Below, piece by piece: positions 1 to 58,393 of a stretch of 64,000 bases of DNA. The DNA lies in the IMG/VR virus record IMGVR_UViG_2851938318_000001, one strand, 5' to 3'. The translations under genes and the position numbers were made by a program. The stretch's first letter is position 1, and every line of letters begins with the position of its first letter. The notes below the pieces were generated by a model. That model was not told the origin of the DNA, made no database searches, and saw nothing but the letters and a program-made list of their open reading frames with translations. The stretch comes from a virus (taxonomy: Duplodnaviria > Heunggongvirae > Uroviricota > Caudoviricetes).

Positions 1-3000
1 ACGTTGAGTGTTTGGGTTGAGTGATCCGCCAGGGCGTTTCTCTTGCGCGATAGTCTCAAGCGCGATTGCTTTCATCCGTTGAGCGGCATTGTTCCATATG
101 CTTTCTGTATCGCCGGATTCAGTTGTGCTACCGTCACTATGGACGTTGATCTCAATTGATACCGGAGAAAGAACATTTCCTCCTCCACTCATACCATCGG
201 TACTGAGCGTTACAGGGATTGTTCGACCATCAGGCAATGGAACATACGCCTCATTCATAGAACCTTCCCCAAACAACGCTAATTGAGGCGAGTTAGCAAT
301 ACCGCCTTTCTGGTATGCCCGGAGCGGGATCACGCCGTCTTTTCCGAATATTCCTCCATTTGCAAACTTCGGGATTGCAGGAATGCCTTTAGTTCCGTCA
401 GCCACACTGCTGGTTGTGGTTTTAGCAGAGCTTGATGTCACACTATCGAAACCACCGCCAGCCCAAGCTGAAACAAGACCAGATGCAACCGTTGCTCCAA
501 AACTCAACCACTTATTACCAGAGCCGGAAGCATTAGCTCCAAGCATTGCAAACGCGGCAGACAGCGCGCCGGTAACAGAGCTGAGGTTCTGCATCGAGAA
601 GATGGAGTCCTTCACGGCTTTTGTCTCGGCATCTTTGGCTTCAGTACTATCAAATAGCCCTGATACCCAGCTACCAATCGCATTTGTTGCAGTGCCAATT
701 GCGCTGGTGGTCTGCTGTGTTGTTTGCCCCAATCCAGTTACCGAACTGGACGTCTCCTTCGTGGCTTCTCCTACCGACTTGTCACCGTTAACAGTGTTGC
801 CCATTCGTACCCCTTGATTGGCAACGGCGGAAGCAACCCCGGTCAGCAAATTACCACTCTGTGAACTACCAGCTGCGGTGGTTCCCATCCCCAACATGTT
901 CATTAGAGGCAGCGTGATCTGCGACTTCACGACCATATTGGTGATATCTTTCAAAATGGACTGAGACAGGCTGGAGAAGCTCATCTTCCCGTTAATAACG
1001 AAATCAGTCAGGACATCAGTTAAGCCACTAAACAAATCAGTCCAGGTGCTTTCGATCTGCTCTGCCAGGTTTTCGTATTCCAGTGCCAACTTCTGCGTCG
1101 CAGTCCCCGTCTCTTTAATAAGCGCGGTATTGCCAGCAGCAATAAGTTGATTGATTTTCTTTGTATAAAGCGCCACGACTTTAGGATCAGACGCCTTATC
1201 ACGAAGTTCTATCAACGCTTTGAGATTGCGGTTGTAGGTGTCTTCGAAATCAGCAACTTTCTCTTCACGAGACGGCGTATAGCCAGCACTAATAATGGAA
1301 TCTGATTCCGGTGCCCAAGTGGAGATCATCTGCTCAACATTGCGGCGATTAAACATCTCGCGATATTCAGGTGTCGCATTTTTGAGGTCTTCAAGACGTT
1401 TTTTCGCCTTGTCGATCATCTCTTGAGTGATGAACTCGTTAGGAACCGCATTAGCCAAATCTGTCAGCGATTTCGTTGTATCGCGAAGAGACTGATCAAA
1501 CGATACCGTAGCCTTAGAGCTTTCACCCATTTGCCCCATAAGCTGATCGGCCTTGTCCAGAGCCTTCTGGTATCCGGCTGCCAGTTTCTGTTGCGCTGCC
1601 TGTTCCTTCTTGGCCGCACGCTGCGAGGCGTTAGCTGATCGTTGGGCTGCTTTCTCGGCGGCTGCGGCATCCTGTTCACGAGCTTTAGTCAGTGCGGCAA
1701 TGGCTGCGGCACGCTCTTCATCGCTCATTTTCTCCAGAGAGCTGGCGCTGGATGCTTTCTGCAAATTAAGCTGCGTCTTGAGTTGTTTAGGCCCAATAAT
1801 CGGCTTACCTTCGAAGTCCATCATCGGAGTGCCGTCAGGCAGAGTACGCTGATAAGTCGCAGAATCCATCTGGTTTCGCATATATTGCGCCAGCGCCTTC
1901 TGAGCTGCTTTATCAGTTGTACCTAACCCCAGAACATCTCCATTGATTGACACTAAGCCATTACCACTTTTGGCCGCGTTATCCCTCTTAAACTCTGCCT
2001 GAGTCAGTTCCTGAGCAACGACTTCCAAATGCTCCTGATAGCCACGAATACTTCCTTGCAGTTTCTGAATCTGCTCGGTATTTCCTTCCTTTTTCGCTTT
2101 TTCAAGCTGATCATTAAGAGTCGCGATTTGCTTCTCGGTCGCATTCTTACGAGAAGAAAGTGAATCAACCAGTTTTTGCGCAGGCTCCAGATAGCTTTTG
2201 TTTACCGTTTCACGTAACGGTGCCAATAGCTTGTTCTTTTCGTCATCCGAAAGTGAACCGTCATCCTTGATTTTCTGGATTTTCTCCAGAGCCTCCTGAC
2301 GAGCTTTCACGAACGTTGCCGCAAAGTCTCTATTCTCTTCGAGTATTTTCTCTATCTGGGATTCTGCCGTCTCTTTTGCCAGACGTTTGGCTACAGCCAA
2401 ATCCCCTCTGGCAATAGTTTCATTGGTTTCATCGCGTTTCTTACGAAGTTCATTTAGCTCATTTTCTATTCGCTTACGTTCATCATGATTAATCTTTACT
2501 GTAGTTCCGGCCATACCCGGCCCATAAACCACCTTTTCGCCAGATTTTAACTCTTGTTCCTTTTGCGTGATTTGTTGCTCAAGACGCGCTTTATACTCGG
2601 CCATCTGTGCACGTTTAGCCGCCGTCATCGCTTCTGGTATTTTCCTAATCTCGTCAACGACCTTTGAAGTTTCGCTACGAAGCATGGTCATATACGTGAT
2701 TAAGCCAGCAACAGCGGTCATTGCAGCAGTGAAAACAAAACCTATCGGATTCGCCGCAATAAACGCAGTCAGGCCAGCAAAAGCGCCTTTAAGCCCCGTA
2801 ATCGCCCCACGGATGGCGAAAATAAGAGAGGGGATCGGAGCCAGCCCCATACGTGCCGCACGATTGAATCGAGTTACTGCTGTAGCGCCGAGGTTAAATG
2901 GAGTCTGTATGGCGGTCGCCATCGTGGCAAAGGTGCTAACCATCTGGCTGCCAGCACCAACTACCCCCATGATCCCTGCTCGCATCAGTTTGAACGCAAC

Positions 3001-4560
3001 CATCGCGGCCACGACCTTACCGAGATTAATTACCAGCTCTTGGTTCTTTGCTAACCATTGAGCAAGCTGACGCAACCCATCGATTGCCGTCGTTAACCCC
3101 GAACCTAAAGAATTGGCAAACGAAATCCCTTCGGCGCTATTCATGATTGAAGCCAGTTCTTTCATCCCCTTTGATAGAGAATCCAGATATCCGGCCTGAC
3201 CAACTCGATCAGCAAATAACGTGAATGACGTCTGAAGTTGCGCCAGCGCACCTGTGTAGGTTTGCATCATGTCTTTCGCTGCGTTCTCGTTCTCCGCACG
3301 CAGACCAACAAACATCAGAGACAACGCCTGTTTTGCCTCAACCGTACCGCTGGCAACAGCTTTAGTCAGTTCCCCCATAGTGATGCCTGCGGCATCTGCC
3401 ATTGCCTGCATCGCGTTAGGAACGGCTTCACCTAATTGCTGACGTAGCTCTTCCATTGACACAACGCCCTTACCGGACATCTGCTGAACGGCCACAGCCG
3501 CACGTTTCAACAGCTCACTATCACCACCAAAACGAGCAACGGAGTCCACCAGCGCCTTCAGAGAACCATCGGTTGGATCTAAGCCAGCAGAACGAAACTT
3601 CACGAAGGAATCTGTTAACGCCTGCATCGCGAACGGCGCATTTTGAGCCATGTCTACGATGTACTTCATATCATCAGCGGCAGCCTGGCCAGGGTTGGAC
3701 TTCTCCTTATTCAACCCTCGAAGCATCACCCGCATACGTTCCATTTCGGCCGCAGCTTCAACAATAGGCTTCTGCCACCCAAACATGATGTCAGTAACCG
3801 TTCTGGCTGCATCTCCGATCTCGCCAAGCAGGAAAATGTTGCCACGAAGGCCAGAGAACATACCTCCTTCGTTATTTTTACCGCTGTGACCAGAAGCGCC
3901 GCTACGCTGCCCGCTACCACCATCGCCACTTCCAGATGTACGAACGCGTACCGGCTTGCTAATCAGTTGCTGACGTCCGATAACTTCGTCCATCTGCTCA
4001 CGAACCTTTTTCAGTCCCTCGGCAGCCTGACTCGTTGTGACCCCCCAATTACTGAGTCGCTTCGTCGTGGTATTAAGGCGCGTATTCATGCCACTCACGG
4101 ACGCAGATGCTTCTTTGACCTCCGTTCCAAAGCGGCTTGCGCTTTTGCTTGCATAGGTCGCCCAATCAGAGAAATCATTTAGCTCTGATTGCACTTTACG
4201 TAATGACGCAGTGAGTTTATCTACTGAAGAAGTTGTCGTATCGACGCGCTCAATCAGGGCTTTAAGACCAGAATTGAGGCTGGTGATGTTGCCACGCATT
4301 TTACGCGTAGCATCTGAAGCAAGCTCAAAACCGGCAGCTACATCCTGTAGTTTATCTGCCGTAGAATCGAGCTTGCTTTCCAGAACGCCAATGATACGGG
4401 CGACCGAACCCAAAGAGCGTTCAAAGGTTTGGATTTTTTGAGCAGGCTTTGTTACCTGCTCACCAAATCGAGTAAGCAGTTTCCCCGCACGATCGATTGA
4501 CGCTGTAAACTGTTTGTCTTCCAGCGACAGGATAAACTCTACGTTTTGTGACATTCCCTT
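1..4560 (-). CDS. tail tape measure protein (partial, continues beyond window start)
   Basis: ATG at 4560 (MSQNVEFILSLEDKQF...); minus-strand frame open to position 1 (checked at window start); only short antisense ORFs on + strand; sits directly downstream of tail chaperone pair. Confidence 0.65.
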
Positions 4561-4561
4561 G

Positions 4562-4831
4562 TCATCCTCTGCCAAATATTTGCATCAGTTGCTCTTTGGC
4601 GTCAGGGTCTGCCTTATCCTGGCTTGGATCGTAGACTTTATCTGTTACGACTGGTCTTCCAATCCTGAGTTGCAAACCCTCCATGAACGCCTTCACAGCC
4701 TCGCCATCCGCCTGGGACGCACGAGCGACTTGTAAGTTGCGGACATCCTCTTCCGCACGCAGACGGTCTATATTGCGACTGAGCATCCAGAACATCGTGA
4801 GAGGGATGTTCAATAGCTCTAATGGCGACAC
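4562..4831 (-). CDS. tail assembly chaperone, frameshift-extension ORF (gpT-like)
   Basis: ORF in alternate frame between chaperone and tape measure; classic G/GT arrangement; slip site not defined. Confidence 0.4.
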   Translation of the reverse strand: MSPLELLNIPLTMFWMLSRNIDRLRAEEDVRNLQVARASQADGEAVKAFMEGLQLRIGRPVVTDKVYDPSQDKADPDAKEQLMQIFGRG

Positions 4832-4911
4832 AGCGTAGTGAGCAACTACACGACTGAAATAGAATCCGAGATCTATTGAAACGGTCCTTGTCCCGGATTC
4901 ATCGCGGGAAA

Positions 4912-5229
4912 TTACTTTGCCCCTTCGCCAGCCGCTTTTTCGTTTTCTTCATCAATCACTTCCATAGCGAAGGTGAAGATCTGCTGGAGTTGCGGAACAG
5001 TCAGTTTTTCAAGAACTTCGTCAGGTACTGAAGGGATAACCTTACGAACCAGATCTGCATAAGCTGTCACTTGCTCAACAGGAGACATGTTCATGAGATC
5101 TTTACCTTCCATCTGCTTGATGGAAACGAACAGACCTACCGTCATTTCAACGATGGGATATTCCTGACCGCCAAATTTGATGCTTTTCTTCGGAGGCAGA
5201 ATGGAATCGAGATCGAGTAATTTGGTCAT
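4912..5229 (-). CDS. tail assembly chaperone (gpG-like)
   Basis: 105 aa acidic protein between major tail protein and tape measure. Confidence 0.5.
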   Translation of the reverse strand: MTKLLDLDSILPPKKSIKFGGQEYPIVEMTVGLFVSIKQMEGKDLMNMSPVEQVTAYADLVRKVIPSVPDEVLEKLTVPQLQQIFTFAMEVIDEENEKAAGEGAK

Positions 5230-5284
5230 TGGTTAAAATCCTTTTAAAAGAGAGGCCCATCCTGAGCCTCTGCTTAATTACTGA

Positions 5285-6067
5285 TTAATCTGCGGGGTTA
5301 ATCGTTACTGACTTAGTAGCCTTCTTAGAACCGCTATTGCTGGTGAAGGAGATGTTTGCAGTACCCTGCGCCACACCACGTACCAGACCCGTTTGATCTA
5401 CCGTGGCCTTTTCCTGGTCTTCGGATTCCCAAACACCGGTTTTGTCTGCGGCATCAGCTGGAGTGATTTCGGCTGTCAGTTGCACAGTTTCTCCAGCTTT
5501 TACGGTTGGAGATTCCGGTGTGATCGACACAGTTTTTACCGGTTTGGGACCGCTCATTTTGCCCAGAACGCCTTCATCATCCGGGTATGCGCTGAACTGA
5601 ACAGAGAACACACGAACATCATCAGACTGGTAGGTCATAGTGAAGTTGCCCGCGGTTGCCGCTTTCGGAATGGTCAACACATAGTCGGTGGTGTCCTGCG
5701 GAGTCAGAACCAGCTCCTTCGCCACATCGATCAGGTTGACGCCCTGTGCAGATGTGATCGTGACAGAGTTGTCATCTTCGCTCAGAGTAGAACCGGGCAT
5801 CAGGTCAACCATGTTTTGGAGTACAGACTCAGCCAGAGGCGCGGTGATGGTAATGTTGCGCCCCTGAACTAATTCGGAAATTACGGTCTGCCCCAACTGA
5901 TCGACGGTGACTTTCAGCGTTTCAGTGGCTACTTCAACCTGAACACCACCTTTGGTGTAACCCAAATCCACACCACCAAACGACACCTTACAGGCACCAA
6001 GTTTGATGTTTTTTACATGGGTATTAGACATTGATGGAAAACTCCTTTTTCCGTTAATTCTACGCAT
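5285..6067 (-). CDS. major tail protein with C-terminal Ig-like (Big_2) domain
   Basis: C-terminal segment TVSITPESPTVKAGETVQLTAEITPADAADKTGVWESED...ATVDQTGLV matches Big_2 pattern; position upstream of chaperones. Confidence 0.7.
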   Translation of the reverse strand: MRRINGKRSFPSMSNTHVKNIKLGACKVSFGGVDLGYTKGGVQVEVATETLKVTVDQLGQTVISELVQGRNITITAPLAESVLQNMVDLMPGSTLSEDDNSVTITSAQGVNLIDVAKELVLTPQDTTDYVLTIPKAATAGNFTMTYQSDDVRVFSVQFSAYPDDEGVLGKMSGPKPVKTVSITPESPTVKAGETVQLTAEITPADAADKTGVWESEDQEKATVDQTGLVRGVAQGTANISFTSNSGSKKATKSVTINPAD

Positions 6068-6105
6068 TCATTGCGCTAATGGTAAGTATATACTTACCTA
6101 TTGAC

Positions 6106-6612
6106 TTAATTCAATAAATAGCCAGCAAATTCAACAGGAATGCCTGCTTCTATTAATGCCCCATCATTTTTGGGATAAATGATTGGCATCGCCATCGGTC
6201 GTACAAGTCGAAAATAAACACCACCAGATTCCGTTTCCTCTACTGGAAACATCTCAATGATTTTATTGGCTTTCTCAACCGTCGTAGTAATTGACGAACC
6301 ACGCACAATGATTGTGAATGATTCGTGATAAAAGCCCTGTAGCTCATGATCGATGCAGATGCCGGTATTTGGGTTAATAAGCAAGACGCCAGATTTCACA
6401 TTGGCAGGCAAGTAGTGACAGAAAATGTCAGTCCCGACCGTGCCAATCTTTGCCTTCTGCATCAAACTTGCAAACGCTTCGATAAACACATTAACCTCTC
6501 GTAAAACCGGCTTTTCTGGCAGCCTCAAGAATCGCTTCTGAGAACTGCTTCTCGCTAATTTCCACCGCTCTTTCCAGAAAGTGTGGCCCAACACGAGGTT
6601 TAACACCGGCAA
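6106..6612 (-). CDS. tail completion / tail terminator-like protein (start probably internal)
   Basis: position in head-tail joining block; overlaps upstream ORF so true start likely a downstream Met. Confidence 0.35.
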   Translation of the reverse strand: MPVLNLVLGHTFWKERWKLARSSSQKRFLRLPEKPVLREVNVFIEAFASLMQKAKIGTVGTDIFCHYLPANVKSGVLLINPNTGICIDHELQGFYHESFTIIVRGSSITTTVEKANKIIEMFPVEETESGGVYFRLVRPMAMPIIYPKNDGALIEAGIPVEFAGYLLN

Positions 6613-6964
6613 TTGGTGGATTTGTCACGTTCTTCATTCGAGAAAGATAACCGAGTCGATATTTACCCAGCTCCATGTACTTAGCATAGTCACCTACTTC
6701 TACGCCCGGATGCCCCTGACGTGGTTTTGCTCCAGACACAGAAAGCTCAATGCGCAGCCCTGAATAACCTTCTTTAATCACCCTGGCAAAGATAGCTGTC
6801 TCCAGAGATCCGGTTTCCAGCGGAGCCATTGCACGGCTGAGACGCTCAACCAAACGCGCCAGCTTTTCCATGTCCCGAATAAGATATCGCTTAAATGCTT
6901 TCTGGCTGTTGTTGAGTCTATTCCCCGCACGTTTGAACTGATGCGCATCGTATTTCAGACCCAT
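6491..6964 (-). CDS. head-tail joining / neck protein
   Basis: co-directional ORF in connector block. Confidence 0.4.
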   Translation of the reverse strand: MGLKYDAHQFKRAGNRLNNSQKAFKRYLIRDMEKLARLVERLSRAMAPLETGSLETAIFARVIKEGYSGLRIELSVSGAKPRQGHPGVEVGDYAKYMELGKYRLGYLSRMKNVTNPPIAGVKPRVGPHFLERAVEISEKQFSEAILEAARKAGFTRG

Positions 6965-7395
6965 ATATTCGCCCCCACTTCAAGATGCCCAGGTCTTCCT
7001 CGTAGCCCCCAGCGACGATGAACACTGGACACCTTTAATTTTTGACCTTCAAGGATCAGCACATCATCAAGTTGTACAGCCGCTTCTAAAGGGACAACTA
7101 ACACAGCATCAAACAACTCCAGACTCGCCTTACCACGGCTACCAGAGCTATCAGCACGAACTGACGATTTCTCATTACTCTGTTCGAACTTAACCACGCC
7201 GACATTCGTCTTCCTGACGAATTGCAATTGCGCCTCGCCGTAAACGTTCTTTGCGCCAAAGCGGTAGATCGCAATTTCTGTTTGCCATGAAATATTCATG
7301 CTCTCTCCCTGTTGTTGTCGGTCGCTCTCATTACTGGCCAAAAACCATTTCGACCAAAAGTAAATAATGCGACTAGCGTTACGCACGGCGAACAA
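6955..7395 (-). CDS. head-tail connector protein
   Basis: co-directional overlapping ORF in connector block. Confidence 0.4.
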   Translation of the reverse strand: MFAVRNASRIIYFWSKWFLASNESDRQQQGESMNISWQTEIAIYRFGAKNVYGEAQLQFVRKTNVGVVKFEQSNEKSSVRADSSGSRGKASLELFDAVLVVPLEAAVQLDDVLILEGQKLKVSSVHRRWGLRGRPGHLEVGANIWV

Positions 7396-8212
7396 TCATA
7401 CGGTTGTTAATGTAACTGACCAGCAAGCGCCAGGTACTGCGAGCCACATGCACGTTTGCAGCTTTACCGGTACGGTACATGTTGGTTGTTTCACCGATGG
7501 ACTCTGACAAAATGCCATCTTCTCGTGCTGCGGCAACATCATTGCCATTTGCGATCTCACACGCTTCGTTGACAACGGCAAGCATCAACGCTTCTTTGAA
7601 GTAGTCAGGGAACTCTTCAAACTTCTCCTGCGTCATCTTTTCCCAATCGACTAAATCATGCCGGTACGCTCCGTCTGCTCCCCACGGAATGTCATACACA
7701 TTCAGCATATTTTGAGGGCGATCGTATCGGTCAAAGTCGATACGTAGAATTTTGCGGATTGAGAACGGTAAAGTTTTAATTCGTCTGGTAGCCTCAATGA
7801 GACGCTTGCGCATTAAGCCTTCACCATCCGACAGCAAAGTGTCCCCATTCAGCATATCGATCGCCTGCATTTGAGCATCAGCGACAGTTGCAAACGACTG
7901 TTCTGGTATCGACAGTTCAAAACTATTCAGCAGAACATACATTTGCCGCTCTTCATGCGTCAGACCCGATGCAACAGCCTTCACAATGACGTACCGCAGA
8001 TCGCGTTCTTTCTCAGAGAGCAGGTTATATTCAGCCGACACGACAACCGGAATCGACATTTGCCCGCTGGTAATTTCTAGCGGCTCGCCATCAACGAGAA
8101 TAGCCCCGGTGCTGTCCTTTACTGTGTAGGTGGCAGATTCGATATCCAGCACGTTGAAGGCAAATGAAAGAGAAACAGCTTCACCGCTACGATACGAGTC
8201 GATCTGCGCCAT
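7379..8212 (-). CDS. virion structural protein (head-tail region)
   Basis: 277 aa ORF, overlapping neighbours by a few bp. Confidence 0.4.
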   Translation of the reverse strand: MAQIDSYRSGEAVSLSFAFNVLDIESATYTVKDSTGAILVDGEPLEITSGQMSIPVVVSAEYNLLSEKERDLRYVIVKAVASGLTHEERQMYVLLNSFELSIPEQSFATVADAQMQAIDMLNGDTLLSDGEGLMRKRLIEATRRIKTLPFSIRKILRIDFDRYDRPQNMLNVYDIPWGADGAYRHDLVDWEKMTQEKFEEFPDYFKEALMLAVVNEACEIANGNDVAAAREDGILSESIGETTNMYRTGKAANVHVARSTWRLLVSYINNRMIVRRA

Positions 8213-8646
8213 TACTCACCGCCTTGTGCTTTCAGGATGCCTTCAATCATCTCGACAATTCCTTTCGCTTTAACACCAACCTGATTACCAATAACTCGTA
8301 GACCGGCAATACCTTCGTTGTCTGCAATGGACTCCAGCTCTTCTCGTGTGAAAGTCTGGATCTGTTTGGCCGGTTCATCTGGTGTCCCACGTTTCATTGG
8401 CACAATGTCAGGCGCTACTGGCTCTGTAATCAGGTCTGCGGCCAATTCACCACGATCACTGTATGCGGCAGATGGGGAAACATTTTTTCCCTCTACTGTT
8501 GACGCTCGCATTGATGCACAAATTCTCTGCTGATCGATAAAAGGCAACTCCGCTACGGATACCCCGTTCTCGAACTGAACGCCGCACAGCATTCCCGAAT
8601 AACCGGAAAATTGCGGTTCTAATAAAACAATTTTTGCTGGTTTCAT
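8212..8646 (-). CDS. head completion / adaptor-like protein
   Basis: 144 aa ORF between Ig-like protein and connector genes. Confidence 0.4.
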   Translation of the reverse strand: MKPAKIVLLEPQFSGYSGMLCGVQFENGVSVAELPFIDQQRICASMRASTVEGKNVSPSAAYSDRGELAADLITEPVAPDIVPMKRGTPDEPAKQIQTFTREELESIADNEGIAGLRVIGNQVGVKAKGIVEMIEGILKAQGGE

Positions 8647-8690
8647 AACGCTTTCTCTCCACTTGGGCGGCTTTCGCCGCCCAATATCGG

Positions 8691-9611
8691 TTATTCCTGT
8701 GCGGCAGTGACCTCTACGGTCGCTGTCGCTTTGTGGCTACCATCTTGTGTAGTAACCTCGATTGTGGCAGTGCCAGCCGCAACACCAGTTACAACACCGG
8801 TTTCGCTGTCCACCGTTGCAAACTCGGTATTTTTGGATTCCCAAGTAACGGTTTTATTTGTGGCTCCTACCGGCTCGACATTTGCGGTCAGCTGAACAGT
8901 TTTGTTTGCCTCAACGGTTGTGCTATTTGGGTCGATTTCGACACCAGTAACAGCCACAACAGGCGCAGTTACTTCCACCGTTGCAGTTGCCTTTTTGCTG
9001 CCATCTTGGGAAACGATCTCAATCGTCGCAGTGCCAACTTCTACACCAGTTACGTTCCCGCTCTGGTCTACCGTTGCCTTATCTTCATTTTTGGAAGACC
9101 AGGTAACAGCCTTATTCGTCGCATTTGACGGCTGAACATTCGCTTTCAGACTGACTGATTTTCCTTTCTCAACAGAGGTTGAGTCTGGCGTTACCGTTAC
9201 GGATTGAACGGCTACCGGATTTACGGTGACTTCCACTGAAGCGGAAAGCTGGGTTTCCTGATCAGTTGCAGTAATTTTTACTTTGCCTGGGGCTACGCCA
9301 GTTACTAATCCAGTGCCGTTAACGGTTGCAATTTGATCATTGGCTGACTTCCAGGTGAATGAACTGGCACTCTTACCCATAGTAATACCTGCACTAAGTT
9401 GAACAGTTTTCCCAACCAAAACTGACGGTGAAGCCGGGGTTATGTTTACGGATTGGGAGAAGGGAACCGCCTGCAAACAAGCAGATAGCTGACTTTGTTG
9501 TCGCTCGGTTAAAGGTTCATCGGAGATAGAATTGGTAAATCCGGCACGGCACATATGCCCCGTAAAATCCGAAAATGCCTCTTCCGTAATCTTCATCTTT
9601 TGTTCTGGCAT
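8691..9611 (-). CDS. Ig-like (Big_2 x3) virion decoration protein
   Basis: three tandem Big_2-like repeats (e.g. VTVTPDSTSVEKGKSVSLKANVQPSNATNKAVTWSSKNEDKATVDQSGNVTGV). Confidence 0.6.
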   Translation of the reverse strand: MPEQKMKITEEAFSDFTGHMCRAGFTNSISDEPLTERQQSQLSACLQAVPFSQSVNITPASPSVLVGKTVQLSAGITMGKSASSFTWKSANDQIATVNGTGLVTGVAPGKVKITATDQETQLSASVEVTVNPVAVQSVTVTPDSTSVEKGKSVSLKANVQPSNATNKAVTWSSKNEDKATVDQSGNVTGVEVGTATIEIVSQDGSKKATATVEVTAPVVAVTGVEIDPNSTTVEANKTVQLTANVEPVGATNKTVTWESKNTEFATVDSETGVVTGVAAGTATIEVTTQDGSHKATATVEVTAAQE

Positions 9612-9614
9612 TTC

Positions 9615-9645
9615 TCGCTCCTACAAAAAGGGTGGGCGTATAGCC
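9615..9645 (-). terminator. strong rho-independent terminator downstream of capsid gene
   Basis: aaaaa-gggtgggcgtatagcccaccc. Confidence 0.65.
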
Positions 9646-9684
9646 CACCCTTTAACATAGATAATTACTTATCTACTGCACTGA

Positions 9685-10560
9685 TTAAATTTTTACATTG
9701 GTCAGTGCAGCGATAGCCTTATCGTGCTTATTCGCCAGAGAGCAGTACCACTTCACACGGGTACGTACTGCGTCTTTGTTCTGTACAGTACCAATGTTTT
9801 CAACAACGATACCTGCGTTGTCGCCGCCATACAGACCAGTAACGCCGTTCTCTTCTGACAGATGCAGGCAGTAGATGCTTGCTTTGCCAGAATCGGTCGG
9901 GATGAAGTCGTTGATGATGAACGGAACGCCGTTGTGACACAGCATCGGACGACCGAAGTTCTCCATCATGATTTCAGACGGACCTACGTTTACTGTACGC
10001 AGCAGCGCACGGTAAGCACGCAGGTGCTCTGAACGCATCATGATGCAGTCAGCACCAAGATCTTTCACCGCATCGACCAGTTCGTCGAACATGGAGAAAG
10101 TCATAGATGCACCTGCGATGTCGATCTTCTGATCTTCATGCATCAGGCGTGGAATACCGTCGAACGCTTTGTTGTTGGAGCTGGAGTCACCCAAAATCAG
10201 GTTGCGGCGGAACGCACGAGCCAGACCTTTAACTTTCTGACGAACCTGAATAGCCAACTGGTTATTGGTGTCGGCCATAGTGGTTGCCAGGAATTTATCA
10301 ACGTCTACGTCACCAGCCAGAATACGCAGTTTCGCAACGCATTCTTCGAAGGTTGCTGCACCTTCAGGGATGGTGTCGTTAACGTCGATGAAGGTAGCTT
10401 CACTCAGCGTTTTTTCACGGTTGTACAGATATGCCTTTGAATTAATTTTCATAAAAGGCAAGATGGCAAACAGGTCATCGCGATCGATGATAGTTTCGAT
10501 CACACCCTGTTCAAGTTCGTTGTTAGACAGCTTTTCAGCTTCTTCACGCAGTAATGGCAT
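9685..10560 (-). CDS. major capsid protein (putative)
   Basis: 291 aa ORF between scaffold-like gene and decoration protein; strong terminator downstream. Confidence 0.5.
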   Translation of the reverse strand: MPLLREEAEKLSNNELEQGVIETIIDRDDLFAILPFMKINSKAYLYNREKTLSEATFIDVNDTIPEGAATFEECVAKLRILAGDVDVDKFLATTMADTNNQLAIQVRQKVKGLARAFRRNLILGDSSSNNKAFDGIPRLMHEDQKIDIAGASMTFSMFDELVDAVKDLGADCIMMRSEHLRAYRALLRTVNVGPSEIMMENFGRPMLCHNGVPFIINDFIPTDSGKASIYCLHLSEENGVTGLYGGDNAGIVVENIGTVQNKDAVRTRVKWYCSLANKHDKAIAALTNVKI

Positions 10561-10585
10561 CTATCAATTCCCTTTGATTTAGATG

Positions 10586-11473
10586 TTACTTAAGTCCAAT
10601 TTTCCCCAGACCGGAGGCCAACTTATCCATAGTCGACTTGTTCTTCGGTTGGGATATTGTGTAGGTCGATTTGGAATGTGAGCCTACACCCTGCTTGGCT
10701 TCGCTACGCATCAATGCGTCAGCTTCCGGATCTGCCCGCACAATGCGTTCAATCGCGGATTCAAACGGCAACGGCTTACCTTCACCGTCAACCAGAACAG
10801 CTCGTTCTTTATGACCTGCCGGTTTGTCATAACCCACTACGCTACCGTCTTCACCCACTTCAAAATGAGAACCGTAGATCACGCGGGCTTTTGCCGGAGT
10901 CATCAGAACTTTGTCACGTAGGAAGAGAGAGTTACTGAAGGAAGCGCCCACGGTCATCTCGACTAATTGAGATTTCAGTGATGCGTTTTCACTTTCCAGT
11001 GCTGCATAACGTTCGTCACGCTGTGCCAGCTCTGCCTGGTGTGCTTCGATCATCTGTTTTTTAACAGCATCGAACTCACCACGACGCTCCAGTTCAGCTT
11101 GCTCCGCCTCACGACGTGCATTTTCTGCGGCCTGTTCAGCTTCTAAAAGCTGGCGAGCACGCGCCGGGTCGATATCACCGTACTGAGCAAGCTGATCGGC
11201 CAATGTGCGCTCTTTCTCTTTGCGCTTCATGTTCTCTTTCAGCAGTTCAGCACCAGCTTTCTTGGTTTTACGAAGTTCGGCCAGTAACTCTTCATGAGTC
11301 ATGCCAGCGTATTCGTCATCACCCTTCGGCTGCTCTTTTTGTTCACCCTGTTTGTCAGGATTTTGTGTACTCTGCTCATTATCAGCAGCTACACCGCCAG
11401 CGCCTCCACGCTCATGCGCTTCAGCAACATTCATCAGACCACGACGGGCCAAAAGCATTTGCCACAGTTTCAT
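10586..11473 (-). CDS. scaffolding protein (putative)
   Basis: charged, coiled-coil-rich (AELLKENMKRKEKERTLADQLAQ...) protein between portal and capsid. Confidence 0.45.
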   Translation of the reverse strand: MKLWQMLLARRGLMNVAEAHERGGAGGVAADNEQSTQNPDKQGEQKEQPKGDDEYAGMTHEELLAELRKTKKAGAELLKENMKRKEKERTLADQLAQYGDIDPARARQLLEAEQAAENARREAEQAELERRGEFDAVKKQMIEAHQAELAQRDERYAALESENASLKSQLVEMTVGASFSNSLFLRDKVLMTPAKARVIYGSHFEVGEDGSVVGYDKPAGHKERAVLVDGEGKPLPFESAIERIVRADPEADALMRSEAKQGVGSHSKSTYTISQPKNKSTMDKLASGLGKIGLK

Positions 11474-11494
11474 AAAAATTCCCTTTGTTACTTA

Positions 11495-13069
11495 TCACTC
11501 GTTCTCTTGAGTAGATGAGTCCCCATTCCCTCGGGGTTGATCTTGCCCGCTTTCTTGGGCCGCGCCTTGATCATAAGTAAGTACTGACTTATTTTCAAGG
11601 GTATTTAGATCATTTTTTGGCGGAAAATTCAAGAGATCTTTATCAAATTCCTTCTTCATCGCCTCAGTGATGTTCGGGAAAATCTTCTCAATAAGCATTT
11701 CCATCTGGTGACGACGTACAGAGTCCGGTGCCTGGAGTAATGACAGTTTCTCGGCAACAGAAAATTCATCAGTAAGGCCACGAATATCAAAACTTTCTGG
11801 ATACGCAATTAAAGAGTGGTCTTCGTCCAGATCTACCCCCATCCATTTCGCAACCAGTAGCATGATTTGGCGTTCAGCCCTTTCCAGACGCTCTGCTTTT
11901 GTGACAAGCAAGCTATTTACACGCTGGAAGTCATACATTTTTGCGGCACCAGATGAGTTATCGATTCCCTGTGCGTTGTCCTGCTTCGTTCGCTCACCAG
12001 CTACACCAACTGAATGGTAGATTTCGTTAATCACCGTCTTAATCGTAGTGATGATCATCTGAGCTTGTTTCGGGTCTGGTGACAGATAAAACGGCTGGTT
12101 TCCACCTTCAGAATCGTAGGTGAAGACTCGCTTTGTGCCCATTTCAAGCACTTTAGTGTGGTTTTCATCACCAGGTAAAAGCGACTGTACCGGTATAGCC
12201 AACTGGCTAAATGTCTGATCCTGAATAATGGCATCAAGGTTTGACAGATAGTTTGCAACCGCACGATCAAGATAAGCGATATCATCGATCAACGATGGGC
12301 TGAAATACGGTGATTCGCTTTCTCCAATACAATCAACAGGAAACACAGGAACTACGCCGAGATTATGCGCACCGCTATCCTCTAAAATAACTTTTGCCTG
12401 ACGGCGACCTGCTCCACCAGCGCCCTTCTTCACTTCCTCACGGAACAGATACCACTCGTTTTGTGTCCACAGACGATAACGTTGGTATTCCTGACCTGTA
12501 GAAGTAAAAGGATCTGCGTCATCACGAGCGACTTCCACAATTAACGCCCACAACATATTCCCGTCGTCGTCCCATGCCACATCCAGCATTTGCTGAGGTG
12601 AAATCCAGTAGGCGTAGGCGCGAGCATCTTTCTTTTTCTCGTCAGCTACTGACTCAACATCACCACTCATCGTGCTATCGACAACAACCCATATGCGACC
12701 GTAAATAGACGACTGCAAATCAATAGCGGCCATAAATGAGTCAATAGAGGCATTCTGGCGGGTCGCACGTTTCCAGAAATTGCGGATCTGCTCTGGTGCC
12801 TCTTCGATATTTCTATGAATGTCTTCTTTAAAGAGATATTTGTTGATGAGGTTTACCACCTCACGAGTGTGGTTGAAGCGATAAGCACGCTCAACTCGCT
12901 CCTTAAACTCCTGATCTCCCTCTTTAAAGTAACGAAAGATATTGTCTGTAAACCAACCACGCCCGCCAGCGTAAGTGCTGGCGAGGAAGTCCCAATGTTC
13001 TTTTTTCTTTTCGTATTCCGGGTGGCGTCGCGCCACCAGATCCTTAATTTGTTTGTCGTTCAATTCCAT
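11495..13069 (-). CDS. portal protein
   Basis: 524 aa ORF directly downstream of terminase large subunit, acidic C-terminus. Confidence 0.65.
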   Translation of the reverse strand: MELNDKQIKDLVARRHPEYEKKKEHWDFLASTYAGGRGWFTDNIFRYFKEGDQEFKERVERAYRFNHTREVVNLINKYLFKEDIHRNIEEAPEQIRNFWKRATRQNASIDSFMAAIDLQSSIYGRIWVVVDSTMSGDVESVADEKKKDARAYAYWISPQQMLDVAWDDDGNMLWALIVEVARDDADPFTSTGQEYQRYRLWTQNEWYLFREEVKKGAGGAGRRQAKVILEDSGAHNLGVVPVFPVDCIGESESPYFSPSLIDDIAYLDRAVANYLSNLDAIIQDQTFSQLAIPVQSLLPGDENHTKVLEMGTKRVFTYDSEGGNQPFYLSPDPKQAQMIITTIKTVINEIYHSVGVAGERTKQDNAQGIDNSSGAAKMYDFQRVNSLLVTKAERLERAERQIMLLVAKWMGVDLDEDHSLIAYPESFDIRGLTDEFSVAEKLSLLQAPDSVRRHQMEMLIEKIFPNITEAMKKEFDKDLLNFPPKNDLNTLENKSVLTYDQGAAQESGQDQPRGNGDSSTQENE

Positions 13070-13095
13070 TTGAATAACCTTAGATAATTACTTAC

Positions 13096-14352
13096 CTATC
13101 GAGAACCACCAAGAATAACACGGTTTTTGACTGGATACCTACGATGTACTGGATAGCCCAATGCGTCTGCACTATGCTCAATGCCACCTGTCTTATCCAT
13201 ATCTCGTGTTCCAGGCTTGTAGATGACCTTTTCCAGTGAATCAATCAAATGCTTGCACTTCGGATCGATATACAGCCGGATATCTCCAGATGCGGTCATC
13301 AGCATTCGGTTAACAGCATTAACACGATCCGCAATTGGCGGGTGCTTTTTCGAATAATCGACACGTAAGAATCCCTTCTCTTTGAATATGTCTACGTCAG
13401 ACTCCCCGCGAGCATGTTGGCGATAAGCACCTGCCGGATCTGGAAATACCGTTATCTGTGATTTCCAGCGCCAGAAGCGCCTCTCAAGCTCATCACAAAC
13501 CTCTGCCGTGTTAGAGGAAAAGAGCACCAATTCATCAATTGCCCATAGCTCACCATTTGGCTGAGGTTGCAAAATTACGGAAGACATCGGGTCAATGTTG
13601 AAGTCCTGTCCTACCCATATAGGCAACCGAGGGTTGAACTGAAGCGGTTTAACATGCACGTTTCGATCGAACGGGTAGTAAACGCGCCCGGACATATTTT
13701 CAAAGCTGGCCAGGTACTCCTGAGCGAACGATTTAGGGTCCATATCGTTCTTAGCAGCTTCAATTTCCGCCGTAGGCACAAACGGCGAATCAGCAGTTAC
13801 AAACTGCCAGCTCTTCCACTGTCCCTTTCTTTGCAGCTCTACGTTCTGGCCTATAGTCCACAGTTTGTGAAATTCCGAGAAGCCTTTTGGCGTACCAATA
13901 ATCAGTGCACCGCCGCGTGTCGATGAAAGAGTAGGTCGTAACACCTTGTACCAGGTGTCAGCCTTCATATCCTGAAATTCATCAAGCACTACAAAATGCA
14001 ACGCTACGCCGCGCAGAGTGTCAGGTTTATCAGCTCCTTTGAGGGCGATCTCCGAACCGTTCTTCAACACGATTGTCATCGTGGTGTCGTTCTTTTTCCT
14101 AACCCACTTACGGGGCAGAACTTCCTGTAGATCGTCCCACAAAATCTGGCGAGCCATCTGGTAAGTAGGAGCGACATACCAGACCCTTTGCTTTTTTTCC
14201 TTTGCCGCCGCACGAATAATAGTGGAGATCGACAACCGGGATTTTCCCCAGCGTCGACCAGCACAAACAACTTTAAATCGATGCGGAGACTGGAAGACTT
14301 TCATCTGTCCAGAATGCAGTTGCACAAGACTGAGCGAGGACGGGATTGCCAT
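13096..14352 (-). CDS. terminase large subunit
   Basis: Walker A CAGRRWGKS, Walker B VVLDEFQD; start overlaps TerS stop. Confidence 0.85.
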   Translation of the reverse strand: MAIPSSLSLVQLHSGQMKVFQSPHRFKVVCAGRRWGKSRLSISTIIRAAAKEKKQRVWYVAPTYQMARQILWDDLQEVLPRKWVRKKNDTTMTIVLKNGSEIALKGADKPDTLRGVALHFVVLDEFQDMKADTWYKVLRPTLSSTRGGALIIGTPKGFSEFHKLWTIGQNVELQRKGQWKSWQFVTADSPFVPTAEIEAAKNDMDPKSFAQEYLASFENMSGRVYYPFDRNVHVKPLQFNPRLPIWVGQDFNIDPMSSVILQPQPNGELWAIDELVLFSSNTAEVCDELERRFWRWKSQITVFPDPAGAYRQHARGESDVDIFKEKGFLRVDYSKKHPPIADRVNAVNRMLMTASGDIRLYIDPKCKHLIDSLEKVIYKPGTRDMDKTGGIEHSADALGYPVHRRYPVKNRVILGGSR

Positions 14353-14984
14353 TATTCGTCCTCCCCTTCACTTCCATCATCTGTCGCATCAAATTCGCTT
14401 AGAGCTTCTTCTTCCAACGTCTCAAGCAATTCGTCATCGATGATTTCAGGCTCGTCGTCTTCCTGACGTAATTTCGCCACCTGGGAAGGCGTAAGCTCAC
14501 CAAATACCAGGTTCGGAATTTCTTCCTCGTCATTTTCCGCATGATCCATGCCCAATGCTTTGGACGAAACTTCAAAGCATTTTGCAAGGGTATTACTGGC
14601 TCTCTGTAAGCTCTTGAGAGAACCCTCAATCGCCCCTAAAGGCTTACCCTCACGTTTGGCCGTAGTGACTTCGACCATCACCATCTGCCCCAACGCATAC
14701 GCCCAGCCGTCATAACGTGTACGACGTTCTTCTATCTTTTCCGCACGGGCTTTAGCGCGAAGCTCTGCGTCAGATTTAAGAGACTCACGAACCATCTTCC
14801 CAACAGAGTCCGCGCCTTTCTCTAATCCTCGCTTTTTGAAATGTCTGGAGAGTGTTTCACGACGAATGCCGTACTCTTCCTCCAGCTTTGAGAGTGTATA
14901 TTCGCCTGACGTCCATTTGGCTTCAGCTTCGGCCCACTCCGCTGGTGTCAGGCGAGTTTTTACCTCGTCTTTTTCGACAGTCAT
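14352..14984 (-). CDS. terminase small subunit (putative)
   Basis: 210 aa with N-terminal HTH-like region and acidic C-terminus, immediately upstream of TerL. Confidence 0.55.
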   Translation of the reverse strand: MTVEKDEVKTRLTPAEWAEAEAKWTSGEYTLSKLEEEYGIRRETLSRHFKKRGLEKGADSVGKMVRESLKSDAELRAKARAEKIEERRTRYDGWAYALGQMVMVEVTTAKREGKPLGAIEGSLKSLQRASNTLAKCFEVSSKALGMDHAENDEEEIPNLVFGELTPSQVAKLRQEDDEPEIIDDELLETLEEEALSEFDATDDGSEGEDE

Positions 14985-15182
14985 AGATCCCTCTAAAACA
15001 CACAGAGCGCGTCCATGCGCTCTAAAACAACTTGTTTACTGCATCTGCTAACCAACTTGTTTTCTGGTGTGTCTAATTAGGTCTGGGCATGTCTTACTAA
15101 GCCTGCTTCTGTATATATATTTAATAAGTTACTTATTATTTATATATACAGAAGCAGGTCTTTAAATAACGTCCCAGACCGA

Positions 15183-48060: not shown

Positions 48061-48625
48061 TTTACACAATTTCAGAGGGTAATTTAAAAAATCCGTACTT
48101 ATTACGTGCCTTAAAGAAGCATTGCATCATTAAGTTTGTGTCATATAAGGCACTATGTGCTTTGGCATGATCGTATATAAAGCCAAGAGAGAAGGCCAAC
48201 TCTTCAAGGCGGGGACGTTTACCGTCTTCTGTGGCCCACAATCCCGATAACATAGTATCTATAACAGGAACTTCTGGCAGTCTTACTCCATACCCTGAAA
48301 ACTCGTGTCGAATAAATGGTATATCAAATGCTTCGCCGTTATGAGCAACCCACACACTACATGCCCCCATATAAGCGCCAATTTCGCTGGCATGATTTGA
48401 CAACAAAGGTTCAGCTGCGAGCTGTTCCAATGAAATGCCATGAACGGCTTGAGCTTTCGGATCTATGTTTCTGCGAGGGTTAAAACGCATCTCCAGACTA
48501 TCAATATGTCTCTGTGTCTCCAGTTCATAGCGGGTAATTGCGATTTCAATAATTTTATGACCAGCAAGGAAATCCAGTCCCGTTGAACCGCCCCGGGTTT
48601 CCTGGAGAGTGTTTTATCTGTGAAC

Positions 48626-49516
48626 TCAGGCTGCCAGATCATCGTTTCCGATGGAAGCATAATAAGCTTTTTCTGCTTCTGCCGGAGGAGTATGGCCCAG
48701 CCTTCCCAGCAATCGTCGATTGTTATACCAGTCCACCCACGTTAGTGTGGCCAGTTCCACTTCTGCACGGTTTTTCCAGCTCTTACGGTGTATTACCTCC
48801 GCTTTGTAAAGACCATTGATGCTCTCAGCCATCGCGTTGTCATACGAGTCGCCTGTACTCCCTGTTGATGCCAGTAATCCGGCTTCTTTTAGTCGCTCCG
48901 TATAGGCCAGTGACACATACTGAGAGCCTTTATCGCTGTGATGGATGGTGCCAGACGGACGACGGGCCCACAACGCCTGCTCCAGCGCATCCAGCACGAA
49001 TGTCGTTTCCATAGACGATGAGACCCGCCACCCCACGATGTATCCGGCAAACACATCAATGATAAACGCCACATAGACGAAGCCCTGCCATGTGCTGACG
49101 TAAGTAAAATCAGCCACCCACAGCTGGTCAGGTCGTTCTGCCACGAACTGACGGTTTACGCGGTCGCCTGCGGCAACGGCTTTCCGGCTGATGGTCGTAC
49201 GGACCTTTTTACCCCGGAGAACACCGGCAAGTCCCATAACCGCCATGAGACGTGCCACTGTACATCTGGCCACCCTGATTCCTTCCCGTAACAACTGACG
49301 CCAGACTTTACGCACACCGTACACCTGATGATTTTCATCGTATACGCGCTGTATCTCTCTCTTCAGCCAGTCGTCGTGCTGCGCACGGGCACTGCGTTTA
49401 TCCGGATGATGTCGCTGTTGCTGACAATGGTAATACGTTGACGGGGCAATATGCAGTTCGCTGCATACCGGTCCGACCCCGTACTGCTCACGCAGCTTAT
49501 CCAGCAGTGGCATCAT
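48626..49516 (-). CDS. IS629-type transposase OrfB (DDE)
   Basis: overlaps orfA in -1 frame; DDE integrase-like sequence. Confidence 0.85.
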
Positions 49517-49839
49517 TTTTTCCAGAGGCGGTCGAACTCCGCCTTCGCAAAATAAGCGGAAGCCTGGCGAAGGATATCGTTACTGCGGCGCAGTTCACGA
49601 TTTTCACGTTCCAGCTCTTTCAGACGCTGACGTTCAGCGCTGGTGAGCCCACCATCACCGCCCCCGGTATCCCGCTCATGCTGGCGAACCCAGACACGCA
49701 GAGTCTCCGGCGTACAGCCAATCTTTGGGGCAATGGAACAAATTGCCGCCCACTGTGAGTCATATTCATCCTGACTTTCCAGAACCATACGAATCGCCCG
49801 CTGACGGACTTCGGGGGAAAAACGAGTATTTTTAGTCAT
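49513..49839 (-). CDS. IS629-type transposase OrfA
   Basis: [31 protein letters not shown]... recognised as IS629/IS3411 OrfA. Confidence 0.9.
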
Positions 49840-49941
49840 CCTGTTTACCTCTTTCTCAGGGAGTTTAGTCTCCAGGATTTCCGGGGCGGTTCACGTAGAC
49901 TCGATATCGATGCCTGCAACAATCGTTGTCATCAGAACTCC

Positions 49942-50361
49942 TTACAACTTCTTAGCGCCCTTAAGTAGTGCGCTACGTACAAATTGAGCCGCTTTTTTCA
50001 AAGTTTCTTCACTGGTTTCACAGACAATCGGATCTTTCCACTTACCTGACACAGTGTTGAGAATATTGATTTGGTTGCTATCCAGACAAACAGAGATATA
50101 AAGCACCGTGCCACCAGCCAGCATCAAATGCATAGGAAACAGAGGCTTTTTACTGCCTTCACTGAACTGAGACATGGCGATGTTAATGGCTTCACCCACT
50201 TGTGTACCAACAAGCCCCTGCGCAGTTTCGAATATGGCACGAATAGCCAGACGAGCCTCTCGATCGCTCATAAGCGACCGGGAATGTTCGTCCGCTACAC
50301 GAATCAAAGCCTCTGTTGTTTTCCGATCCAGTTCATCTTCAAGCAACATTTCACTAAACAT
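49942..50361 (-). CDS. hypothetical protein
   Basis: 139 aa ORF ending 10 bp before exonuclease start. Confidence 0.4.
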   Translation of the reverse strand: MFSEMLLEDELDRKTTEALIRVADEHSRSLMSDREARLAIRAIFETAQGLVGTQVGEAINIAMSQFSEGSKKPLFPMHLMLAGGTVLYISVCLDSNQINILNTVSGKWKDPIVCETSEETLKKAAQFVRSALLKGAKKL

Positions 50362-50422
50362 TTTTTATCCTTAACCAATTTTGAGAGTTTTATTGTCGCA
50401 ATGTCGAAGAGGCGAACAATTT

Positions 50423-51067
50423 CTAATGAACGGTCACTCGGCCACAGAACCGGTTTTCTATCTTTTCTACAGCGTTATCTAGCATTCTCATCACTGATCT
50501 GGCTCTTGCTTCAACTGTGCGATACCGGTTGGAAACGACGAAGGTTTGCAGATCTCCCCTTTGCGGATGCAGGTGAATTTTTGTCAGTTCCCCGCACATC
50601 AACGCATCAATACGAGCGACATACAGACGGTCTAATGATGCTCGTTGTGACCGCAAGTAATCTCGCTCTGAGAGAGCGACCCCCGGGCGTAGGCCAGCAA
50701 TGGCGTTAAAGTTTGAAATAGCAGTTTTGTGGCAAAACTTTTCGATATCGAGGGCTAACTCAATACACCGATCTTCATTTGTATGGCCGACCAAATCCAA
50801 CGTGTAGGCCATAACATCAGCAGGTGTGCGATCGATAACAAAGCCTTCAACACCACGCGTAAGTAGCTCTATATGCTTTGCTATTTCCATTTGAATCTGA
50901 AGCCGCTCATATAGAGGCATAGAATCACCTACTCGAACACCGAGGCGGCTCATCAAACTTCCGACACCAGCATCCACGTAAGGGATTCCGTAATGTTTGT
51001 CGATATATTTAGCCAGGGTTGTTTTCCCACTGCCCTGAGCACCAGTGATCCCAATCCGGTAATCCAT
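50423..51067 (-). CDS. P-loop NTPase, possible (d)NMP kinase
   Basis: Walker A GITGAQGSGKTTLA near N-terminus; adjacent to DHFR. Confidence 0.45.
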   Translation of the reverse strand: MDYRIGITGAQGSGKTTLAKYIDKHYGIPYVDAGVGSLMSRLGVRVGDSMPLYERLQIQMEIAKHIELLTRGVEGFVIDRTPADVMAYTLDLVGHTNEDRCIELALDIEKFCHKTAISNFNAIAGLRPGVALSERDYLRSQRASLDRLYVARIDALMCGELTKIHLHPQRGDLQTFVVSNRYRTVEARARSVMRMLDNAVEKIENRFCGRVTVH

Positions 51068-51543
51068 TACGACCTTCTGTATACGATCTGCGAAAAGCCA
51101 GGCTCTTCCTCGCTGGCTCGTTGGGTATAAGCTGTTTCAACAGGCACAAAGCCTAAATTACGCATCATGCTTGCCGGGAAGAATGCATCGGCGTTTGGCA
51201 CATCAACGCCGATGTGGGAGAGCCAAATCTCTTCAACATGCGGCATGAATAGCGAGTAAATTTGTTCCCCGCCAATCACCCACACAGGCTCTGGTAATCG
51301 CAACACATCATCCACACCAGCAGGGTAGAATCCATTTGGTACAAAGCCATGAGAGCGCGTCAAAACGAGGTTATGACGCTCTGGAAGAGGGCGTTTGAGA
51401 CTTTCCATCGTTTTACGCCCCATAACGACAGTGGCGTTTTTGGTGAGTCTCTTAAATAGCTTCAGATCGGTAGAACAACGCCAGGGCAGTTCGTTCGCTA
51501 TGCCGATCTCATAGTTACGGCCAACAGCAGCTATCATCTTCAT
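51067..51543 (-). CDS. folA: dihydrofolate reductase
   Basis: MKMIAAVGRNYEIGIANELPWR...VMGRKTMESL...VWVIGGEQIY matches DHFR motifs. Confidence 0.8.
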   Translation of the reverse strand: MKMIAAVGRNYEIGIANELPWRCSTDLKLFKRLTKNATVVMGRKTMESLKRPLPERHNLVLTRSHGFVPNGFYPAGVDDVLRLPEPVWVIGGEQIYSLFMPHVEEIWLSHIGVDVPNADAFFPASMMRNLGFVPVETAYTQRASEEEPGFSQIVYRRS

Positions 51544-51953
51544 TTGCTCACCTCATAGATGACCGGTCTATGATGAGAGTCAGCTAAAGCGGCACGGAGT
51601 CGAGGATCGTGCACCAGCGCAGCGATAAGCAGATCGCCTTTATGCTCCGCTAATGTGCGCTTAATATGCTTCTCATAACTAGTGCTATTCGGTACGAGAT
51701 GAAGCCAGTCGTAATCAACACCAAAATCTTTCAGCCATCGTTTAGTGGGCGCTTCAAGAGTTTCAGAGCGGCTACTGATAAGCACCACTTCAGCCCCTGA
51801 GCGAGCAAAACCACGCAACATACGGCTGGTGGGGAAAATGAGTTCATCACCGGCAATGAATTGGCCTGCATCCGAGTCAGATACAGATTTACGATGGCTG
51901 GTATTTGCCAGCACACCTTCAATTTCGCATAAGACATACATACCTCTTGCCAT
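51540..51953 (-). CDS. hypothetical protein (nucleotide-metabolism neighbourhood)
   Basis: likely start MARGMYVLCEIEGV overlapping thyA stop. Confidence 0.3.
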   Translation of the reverse strand: MARGMYVLCEIEGVLANTSHRKSVSDSDAGQFIAGDELIFPTSRMLRGFARSGAEVVLISSRSETLEAPTKRWLKDFGVDYDWLHLVPNSTSYEKHIKRTLAEHKGDLLIAALVHDPRLRAALADSHHRPVIYEVSK

Positions 51954-51954
51954 A

Positions 51955-53085: not shown

Positions 53086-53134
53086 TTATTCATTAAGTGA
53101 GTTTACATTTATTGAGGGAACAAGGCCAGATAGA

Positions 53135-53168
53135 TAAAAAAATGGTGGCCTATGGCCACCAAAAACGA
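53135..53168 (-). terminator. rho-independent terminator
   Basis: aaaaaaa-tggtggcctatggccacca-aaaa. Confidence 0.6.
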
Positions 53169-53229
53169 ATAGTTGTTTCAGGAATTTAACGCGCTAACAC
53201 AATATACATAGATAGATAACTACCTACAA

Positions 53230-54099: not shown

Positions 54100-54176
54100 G
54101 CTAGTTTTGTTCCTTCTTAATTCTTGTGATCCATTGTGGCCCAGCGTTGCCAGGCCACATAATGCTTTGTATCGGT

Positions 54177-55319: not shown

Positions 55320-55349
55320 GTGTTTTTCCTTTTTCTTTTTTGGTGCGTT

Positions 55350-55382
55350 TAAACAAGTTGTTATCTTATGTGTTTAAACAAG
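55350..55382 (-). promoter_or_regulatory. conserved early promoter/operator unit upstream of nrdB
   Basis: aaacaagttgttatcttatgtgtttaaacaagg. Confidence 0.5.
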
Positions 55383-55425
55383 GCTTACAAATCAAAGAGA
55401 AGGTGGGGATATCCCCCACCATATG

Positions 55426-57741: not shown

Positions 57742-57758
57742 GTATCACCAAATAAAGA

Positions 57759-58384: not shown

Positions 58385-58393
58385 ATAGTCTCC

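Follow-up and report, generated by a model that had tools for sequence, protein, structure and literature searches.

Two described systems bear closely on the locus considered here, one corresponding to the element that carries it and the other to the sequence that interrupts it. Escherichia phage Cyrano (pLF82, OV696614) is an SSU5-like phage-plasmid that is present at ~5.5 copies per cell, yields siphovirus particles and can be induced with ciprofloxacin (PMC9928086). The insertion sequence IS629 makes target duplications of 3-4 bp and, in O157, shows a preference for prophages and plasmids (PMC3271280). We analysed a window, meaning the whole 64,000-nt stretch of DNA from the IMG/VR record IMGVR_UViG_2851938318_000001, in which the two meet, and we hold with high confidence that IS629 transposed recently into the DnaQ-like exonuclease gene of an SSU5-like phage-plasmid. 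The features of the locus, along with the blocks that align to the most closely related plasmid, pRM9131-1, are collected in Table 1.

Table 1. Coordinates, in the window, of the insertion, the interrupted gene and the blocks aligned to pRM9131-1
Feature	Coordinates	Strand	Description
IS629, complete (IS3 family)	48584..49893	-	1310 bp; transposase genes share the direction of the interrupted operon
Terminal inverted repeat, orfA-proximal	49869..49893	-	End TGA (minus-strand reading) is the stop codon of the exonuclease stub
Terminal inverted repeat, orfB-proximal	48584..48608	-	22 of the first 25 bases match the opposite end
Target-site duplication, copy 1	48581..48583		CGT on the plus strand; on the gene strand, the Thr13 codon ACG
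Target-site duplication, copy 2	49894..49896		CGT
IS629 orfA	49839..49513	-	108 aa; HTH_Tnp_1
IS629 orfB	49516..48626	-	296 aa; HTH_21 and rve DDE integrase core
ALIL frameshift-stimulating pseudoknot region	49442..49558	-	Score of 121.5 bits with Rfam RF01497 (gathering score 50)
A6 slippery run	49521..49516	-	Inside the ALIL region, where orfA and orfB overlap
Exonuclease 5' stub	49894..49932	-	Codons 1-13 (MTTIVAGIDIEST); holds Exo I residues D9 and E11
Exonuclease 3' part	48062..48583	-	Duplicated Thr codon, G14-V185, stop; holds D99, H155 and D160
Block aligned to pRM9131-1	1-48586		1 mismatch in 48,586 bp
Block aligned to pRM9131-1	49894-56742		1 mismatch in 6,849 bp
Block aligned to pRM9131-1	56737-59804		0 mismatches in 3,068 bp
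Block aligned to pRM9131-1	59802-64000		0 mismatches in 4,199 bp

The host element

In reverse orientation, the window aligns collinearly with Cyrano 61689..108379 and 1..15136, which amounts to a circular permutation, at ~92-99% nucleotide identity over most aligned blocks. Its gene order runs from a RepA-adjacent region through nucleotide metabolism, accessory genes, ParB, the terminase and the head genes into the tape-measure gene, with ~45 kb of the element falling outside the window. Cyrano has 74 proteins in the covered range, and those for structure, packaging, partition, recombination and nucleotide metabolism are all full length in the window at 97-100% amino acid identity, including TerS/TerL, the portal, MCP, NrdAB, ThyX, DHFR, SbcCD and UvsW; this match is broken only at the exonuclease and at a few small accessory islands with other alleles. 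The ParB genes lie inside the window and are 100% identical to those of Cyrano at the amino acid level, and RepA, present in both Cyrano and pRM9131-1 (NZ_CP028430.1; E. coli RM9131, from cattle faeces, Salinas, California), is located just past the window end. By gene content and order, the element belongs with the SSU5-like phage-plasmids, as one of the Cyrano/pLF82 type, and is not a virulent phage. The preliminary description took the insertion to imply prolonged intracellular residence and, possibly, a defective phage. Prolonged residence stands, on the grounds of the phage-plasmid assignment, ParB and the synteny with Cyrano/pLF82, but the IS does not expose it as anything unusual, because long intracellular residence is normal for a plasmid-prophage lifestyle, which also explains the pick-up of a host IS. 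As to defectiveness, the other Cyrano core genes that fall within the window all have their full length.

Elsewhere in the window, the islands that do not align with Cyrano (23710-23924, 25933-26521, 29426-30383, 35699-36189 and 36863-38228) are identical to pRM9131-1. Such islands are typical variable spots of phage-plasmids, where CYRAN_102, 108 and 109 are missing from the window and the Ead/Ea22-like and DUF551 ORFs are other alleles. The homologue of CYRAN_110 (25468-25815, minus strand) reads TAG at codon 20, a Glu codon in Cyrano, and a Met two codons past it may be the true start, which would make the difference a matter of annotation and not a pseudogene. In 30844-34135 lie the genes for a methionyl-tRNA synthetase of full length (metG-like; 99.7% identity with the Cyrano protein) and, beside an S24 LexA-like peptidase, for an ApbC/MinD-like ATPase; the family carries them as conserved cargo, and they are unrelated to the insertion.

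The insertion sequence

The segment that interrupts the exonuclease gene is IS629 itself, beyond its membership in the IS3 family. Over its full 1310 bp it is 100% identical to copies annotated as IS629 in CP-1639, VT2phi_272, Stx2a and many Stx-converting phages, with 176 phage records matching in all; the naming rests on features annotated 'insertion sequence:IS629' (AJ304858.2) and on IS629 OrfA/OrfB (AP012530 and others). The left end reads TGAACCGCCCCGG... from 48584 and the right end ...CCGGGGCGGTTCA up to 49893, so termini of the form TGAACC...GGTTCA provide the 5'-TG...CA-3' ends. On the plus strand, the left junction (48583/48584) reads ...CAGTCCCGT/TGAACCGCCCCGGGTTTCCTGGAGAG... and the right junction (49893/49894) reads ...CTCCAGGATTTCCGGGGCGGTTCA/CGTAGACTCG.... 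The terminal inverted repeats are imperfect, with 13 of the 13 terminal bases paired and mismatches further in (Table 1), and the 13-mer TGAACCGCCCCGG is found at only two sites in the 64-kb window, which are the two IS ends in inverted orientation, against a chance expectation of 0.06. GC content rises from ~0.40-0.46 in the flanks to 0.55 within the IS. These results bear out what had been described beforehand as an IS629-like, IS3-family element with orfA/orfB and imperfect repeats, in its ends and reading frames as well as in its identity.

The coding content is that of an intact element. The two transposase genes are consecutive and overlapping, in frames 0 and -1, and the orfB product matches rve at 9.3e-28 and the NCBIfam transpos_IS3 model at 316 bits (cut-off 160). 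The match to the ALIL pseudoknot, which encloses the slippery run, is full length (1-117) and intact, and from this arrangement an OrfAB fusion is predicted to be made by a -1 frameshift. The window copy is likewise predicted to be active in transposition, because its sequence is identical to that of several recently moved copies.

The target duplication and the empty site

The preliminary description also proposed that the flanking CGT repeats are a target duplication and that removing the IS with one CGT restores a continuous, in-frame DnaQ-like exonuclease, and suggested a comparison with relatives lacking the IS. A lone 3-bp match between flanks arises by accident in 1 of 64 cases, and therefore the empty sites in relatives were checked. 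Cyrano has a single CGT (75792-75794), where the two flanks of the window abut with an overlap of exactly these 3 bases, and pRM9131-1 has the same flank overlap at its single CGT (25710-25712). Once the IS and one CGT are excised in silico, a 185-aa ORF results, in which MTTIVAGIDIEST is joined to GLDFLAGHKII..., and this ORF agrees in 182 of 185 residues with CYRAN_77 of Cyrano, annotated 'Exonuclease, PolIII subunit epsilon'. At the DNA level, at least 12 E. coli plasmids carry an intact '3'-5' exonuclease' gene that agrees with the excised one at 561/561 positions. Each of these earlier proposals holds, then, and in both relatives the site is empty. The insertion site itself is unrecorded, with the exact junction absent from PLSDB, 5426 complete E. 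coli genomes, the GTDB representative genomes and JGI metagenomes; all other components are known.

The interrupted exonuclease gene

The reconstructed protein matches Pfam PF00929 (RNase_T) at 6e-22 over residues 8-166 and PHROG 192 ('DNA polymerase exonuclease subunit') at 3.9e-51, and its closest solved relative is the E. coli Pol III epsilon domain epsilon186 (PDB 1J53, 7.9e-11). Its residues D9, E11, D99, H155 and D160 align with the catalytic residues D12, E14, D103, H162 and D167 of epsilon, covering the DxE of Exo I, the D of Exo II and the H-x4-D of Exo III. By these signatures, the interrupted gene encodes a DEDDh (DnaQ-like) 3'-5' exonuclease. Assignment to the DnaQ equivalog, that is, to Pol III epsilon proper, was rejected, with scores of 71 bits against a cut-off of 196 for NF004316 and 67 against 222.7 for TIGR01406; the DnaQ-model alignment spans the exonuclease domain only. 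A PADLOC model for CRISPR-associated DEDDh also matched (1.1e-25), but this match is owed to the shared domain alone: the Cyrano-collinear window has no cas genes, and the neighbours are nucleotide-metabolism genes and Dam.

Of 5426 complete E. coli genomes, 203 have the gene, nearly always on plasmids of ~105-115 kb, and it is intact in nearly all of ~204 E. coli records. The protein is 98.4% identical to that of Cyrano and 83% identical to that of Salmonella phage SSU5, and the homologues in SSU5 and in the SSU5-like phages of Klebsiella occupy the corresponding position. Further afield, a stand-alone 185-aa epsilon-like exonuclease occurs at 40-45% identity in siphophages of ~107-122 kb that infect distant Proteobacteria (Rhizobium, Pseudomonas, Stenotrophomonas and Xanthomonas), such as Rhizobium RHEph10-like phages, Pseudomonas phage nickie, Stenotrophomonas BUCTxx99 and Xanthomonas JGB6. 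This distribution suggests that the distant siphophages and the SSU5-like elements share an old replication module, and since homologues extend from SSU5 to the distant siphophages, the gene is an old, conserved part of the replication/nucleotide-metabolism module. It is plausible that the exonuclease acts as the proofreading partner of the element's own DnaE (CYRAN_49 in Cyrano). A literature search on SSU5 together with Pol III epsilon returned nothing useful.

Effect of the insertion

The IS interrupts the 185-aa gene behind codon 13 and has the orientation of the gene. Read along the gene, the stub runs ATG...TCT ACG and then directly into the TGA of the IS end, where translation would halt after 13 residues, right behind MTTIVAGIDIEST, thereby cutting D9 and E11 off from D99, H155 and D160. 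The first in-frame ATG of the 3' part is M44, which opens a 142-aa ORF (48490..48062) without Exo I. Because the stub with its DxE motif is separated from the remaining active site, we judge the gene to be inactivated, with a probable loss of enzyme activity. orfB shares its frame with the downstream exonuclease fragment, yet two stop codons lie between them, so a fusion of orfB with the exonuclease was rejected. A consensus scan for an outward IS promoter gave 4 promoter-like sites where 7.3 are expected, and no minus-strand promoter at the IS end, and a scan for a terminator at the junction gave 6 terminator-like sites against 4.7 expected, which is not above chance. Downstream of the exonuclease gene lie a 269-aa gene and Dam.

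The conservation of the gene suggests that the exonuclease matters for the phage cycle, and the persistence of plasmids that have lost it shows that it is dispensable for plasmid life. In practical terms, the split gene is best annotated as one pseudogene plus IS629, and the insertion could serve as a marker for strain typing. In hosts with the IS-excision enhancer, the insertion might be reversible (PMC9943667).

A sibling plasmid and the age of the insertion

The plasmid pRM9131-1 differs from the window by 2 mismatches in ~62.7 kb, and its exonuclease gene is intact, with one CGT, whereas that of the window is split by IS629. The sibling carries six IS629 copies of its own, all at other positions and each identical to the window copy at 1310/1310 positions. 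Three of them, with intact flanks, show 3-bp duplications (AAT, TTC and GTA), while two have swapped flanks (AGT/ACT and GTT/AAC), which points to an IS-mediated inversion through sbcC; the arrangement in the window is uninverted and Cyrano-like, unlike that of pRM9131-1. The genes split by IS629 copies in the sibling include gpJ, sbcC and a 5'-3' exonuclease, and an IS91-family element lies in its nrdA. Every pRM9131-1 insertion that maps within the range of the window is missing from the window, where sbcC and nrdA are intact. The sibling has clearly been decayed by other copies of IS629. A literature search on strain RM9131 found nothing useful.

The insertion is recent, and to judge from the sequences compared here it is very recent and strain-specific, because no base separates the IS from its sister copies or one CGT repeat from the other, and in ~62.7 kb of backbone only 2 bases differ from a sibling whose site is free of the IS. 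On the same comparison, IS629 has moved several times while two point differences became fixed, in line with its published leaning towards prophages and plasmids in O157 and with its duplications of 3-4 bp (PMC3271280). The pair of plasmids offers a clean before-and-after case of IS629 mobility outpacing point mutation, with different IS complements and an inversion despite 2 differences. Phage-plasmids in IS-rich, STEC-type hosts gather insertions able to erode phage functions.

In the most probable course of events, an IS629 copy from an IS629-rich E. coli host, probably STEC-like, would have jumped into the plasmid-form prophage; as donor we presume either the host genome or a further copy on that plasmid. 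The OrfAB transposase would be produced by -1 ribosomal slippage on the A6 run, with the ALIL pseudoknot as stimulator, and, going by membership in the IS3 family, transposition would have followed the copy-out-paste-in route, with staggered cleavage of the target leading to the 3-bp CGT duplication. The insertion is most likely neutral or mildly deleterious and would be tolerated during plasmid replication.

Alternative explanations

Two further readings were weighed against a recent and unremarkable transposition. In one, the insertion is not random, either because the exonuclease gene is a preferred target of IS629 or because its loss is selected, which could come about through relief of a cost, by confining the element to plasmid life or by raising the error rate of replication with its own DnaE. 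Three independent IS629-family insertions, in the window, in MINF_8D plasmid 3 and in the contig ERR15395265, occupy three sites in this one 558-bp gene, which makes up only ~0.5% of the element. In MINF_8D plasmid 3 (NZ_LR890608.1, 3779-7920), an IS629-family element ~95-97% identical lies mid-gene in the exonuclease with a 4-bp duplication, itself split at about IS nt 516-524 by a ~2.3-kb group II intron encoding ltrA. The case shares the gene, the phage-plasmid family and the IS orientation with the window, but differs in its site, in a 4-bp instead of a 3-bp duplication, in the divergence of the IS and in the intron. The Logan contig ERR15395265 opens (1-60) with an IS629-like end of 30 nt that has one mismatch. 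This end abuts the exonuclease gene immediately before codon 37, a third site, and the IS there has the orientation opposite to that of the window. However, both additional cases are subject to ascertainment bias, as the Logan match came from a look-up of the truncated product, and MINF_8D ranked high as the query contained the IS. That look-up, made with the 142-aa product, returned six contigs, of which five begin at the same point of the gene without an IS signal and one has the IS end. Furthermore, the sibling pRM9131-1 has its six copies at other sites (in gpJ, sbcC and the 5'-3' exonuclease, among others) and an intact exonuclease, a pattern of general IS bombardment, and the conservation of the gene from SSU5 to the phages of Rhizobium and Pseudomonas implies purifying selection. 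With both extra cases drawn from biased searches, ~200 other copies intact and the sibling hit by IS629 elsewhere, a hotspot or selection for loss is kept as a rival of low probability. The general form of the idea, that the exonuclease is a recurrent target of the IS629 family throughout SSU5-like phage-plasmids, with its loss favoured or the site preferred, we rate as very improbable. Were it true, phage-plasmids with their own DnaE but no dedicated proofreader would be mutators or lytically crippled, heading towards plain plasmids.

In the other reading, the insertion would be an assembly artefact, in which a copy of IS629 was misplaced into the plasmid while a repeat-rich genome was being assembled. 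Such hosts carry IS629 in multiple copies, assemblies do get misjoined at IS copies, and the junction is the one component absent from all the collections searched. Against this, both junctions fall on exact IS termini, the 3-bp duplication is of a sequence that is single-copy in the relatives and would not be made by misassembly, and the flanks on either side stay collinear with those relatives. We regard an artefact as extremely improbable, and retain a recent transposition of IS629 as the explanation of the locus.

Comparison with known systems

Measured against Cyrano, the element differs in several small accessory islands and in its exonuclease gene, which in Cyrano is without the IS; virion production and induction have been shown for Cyrano only. 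Compared with epsilon (DnaQ), the exonuclease belongs to the same DEDDh family with all 5 catalytic residues aligned, but the protein ends at residue 185, without the C-terminal alpha-binding segment. The event is an ordinary one, as the inactivation of prophage and plasmid genes by IS629 in STEC-type E. coli is already known. With IS629 as described from Shigella and E. coli O157:H7, including the isoforms IS1203 and IS3411, the window copy has in common the orfA/orfB layout, the ALIL signal, the TG...CA ends and the 3-bp duplication, and it differs from the known copies only by its insertion site.
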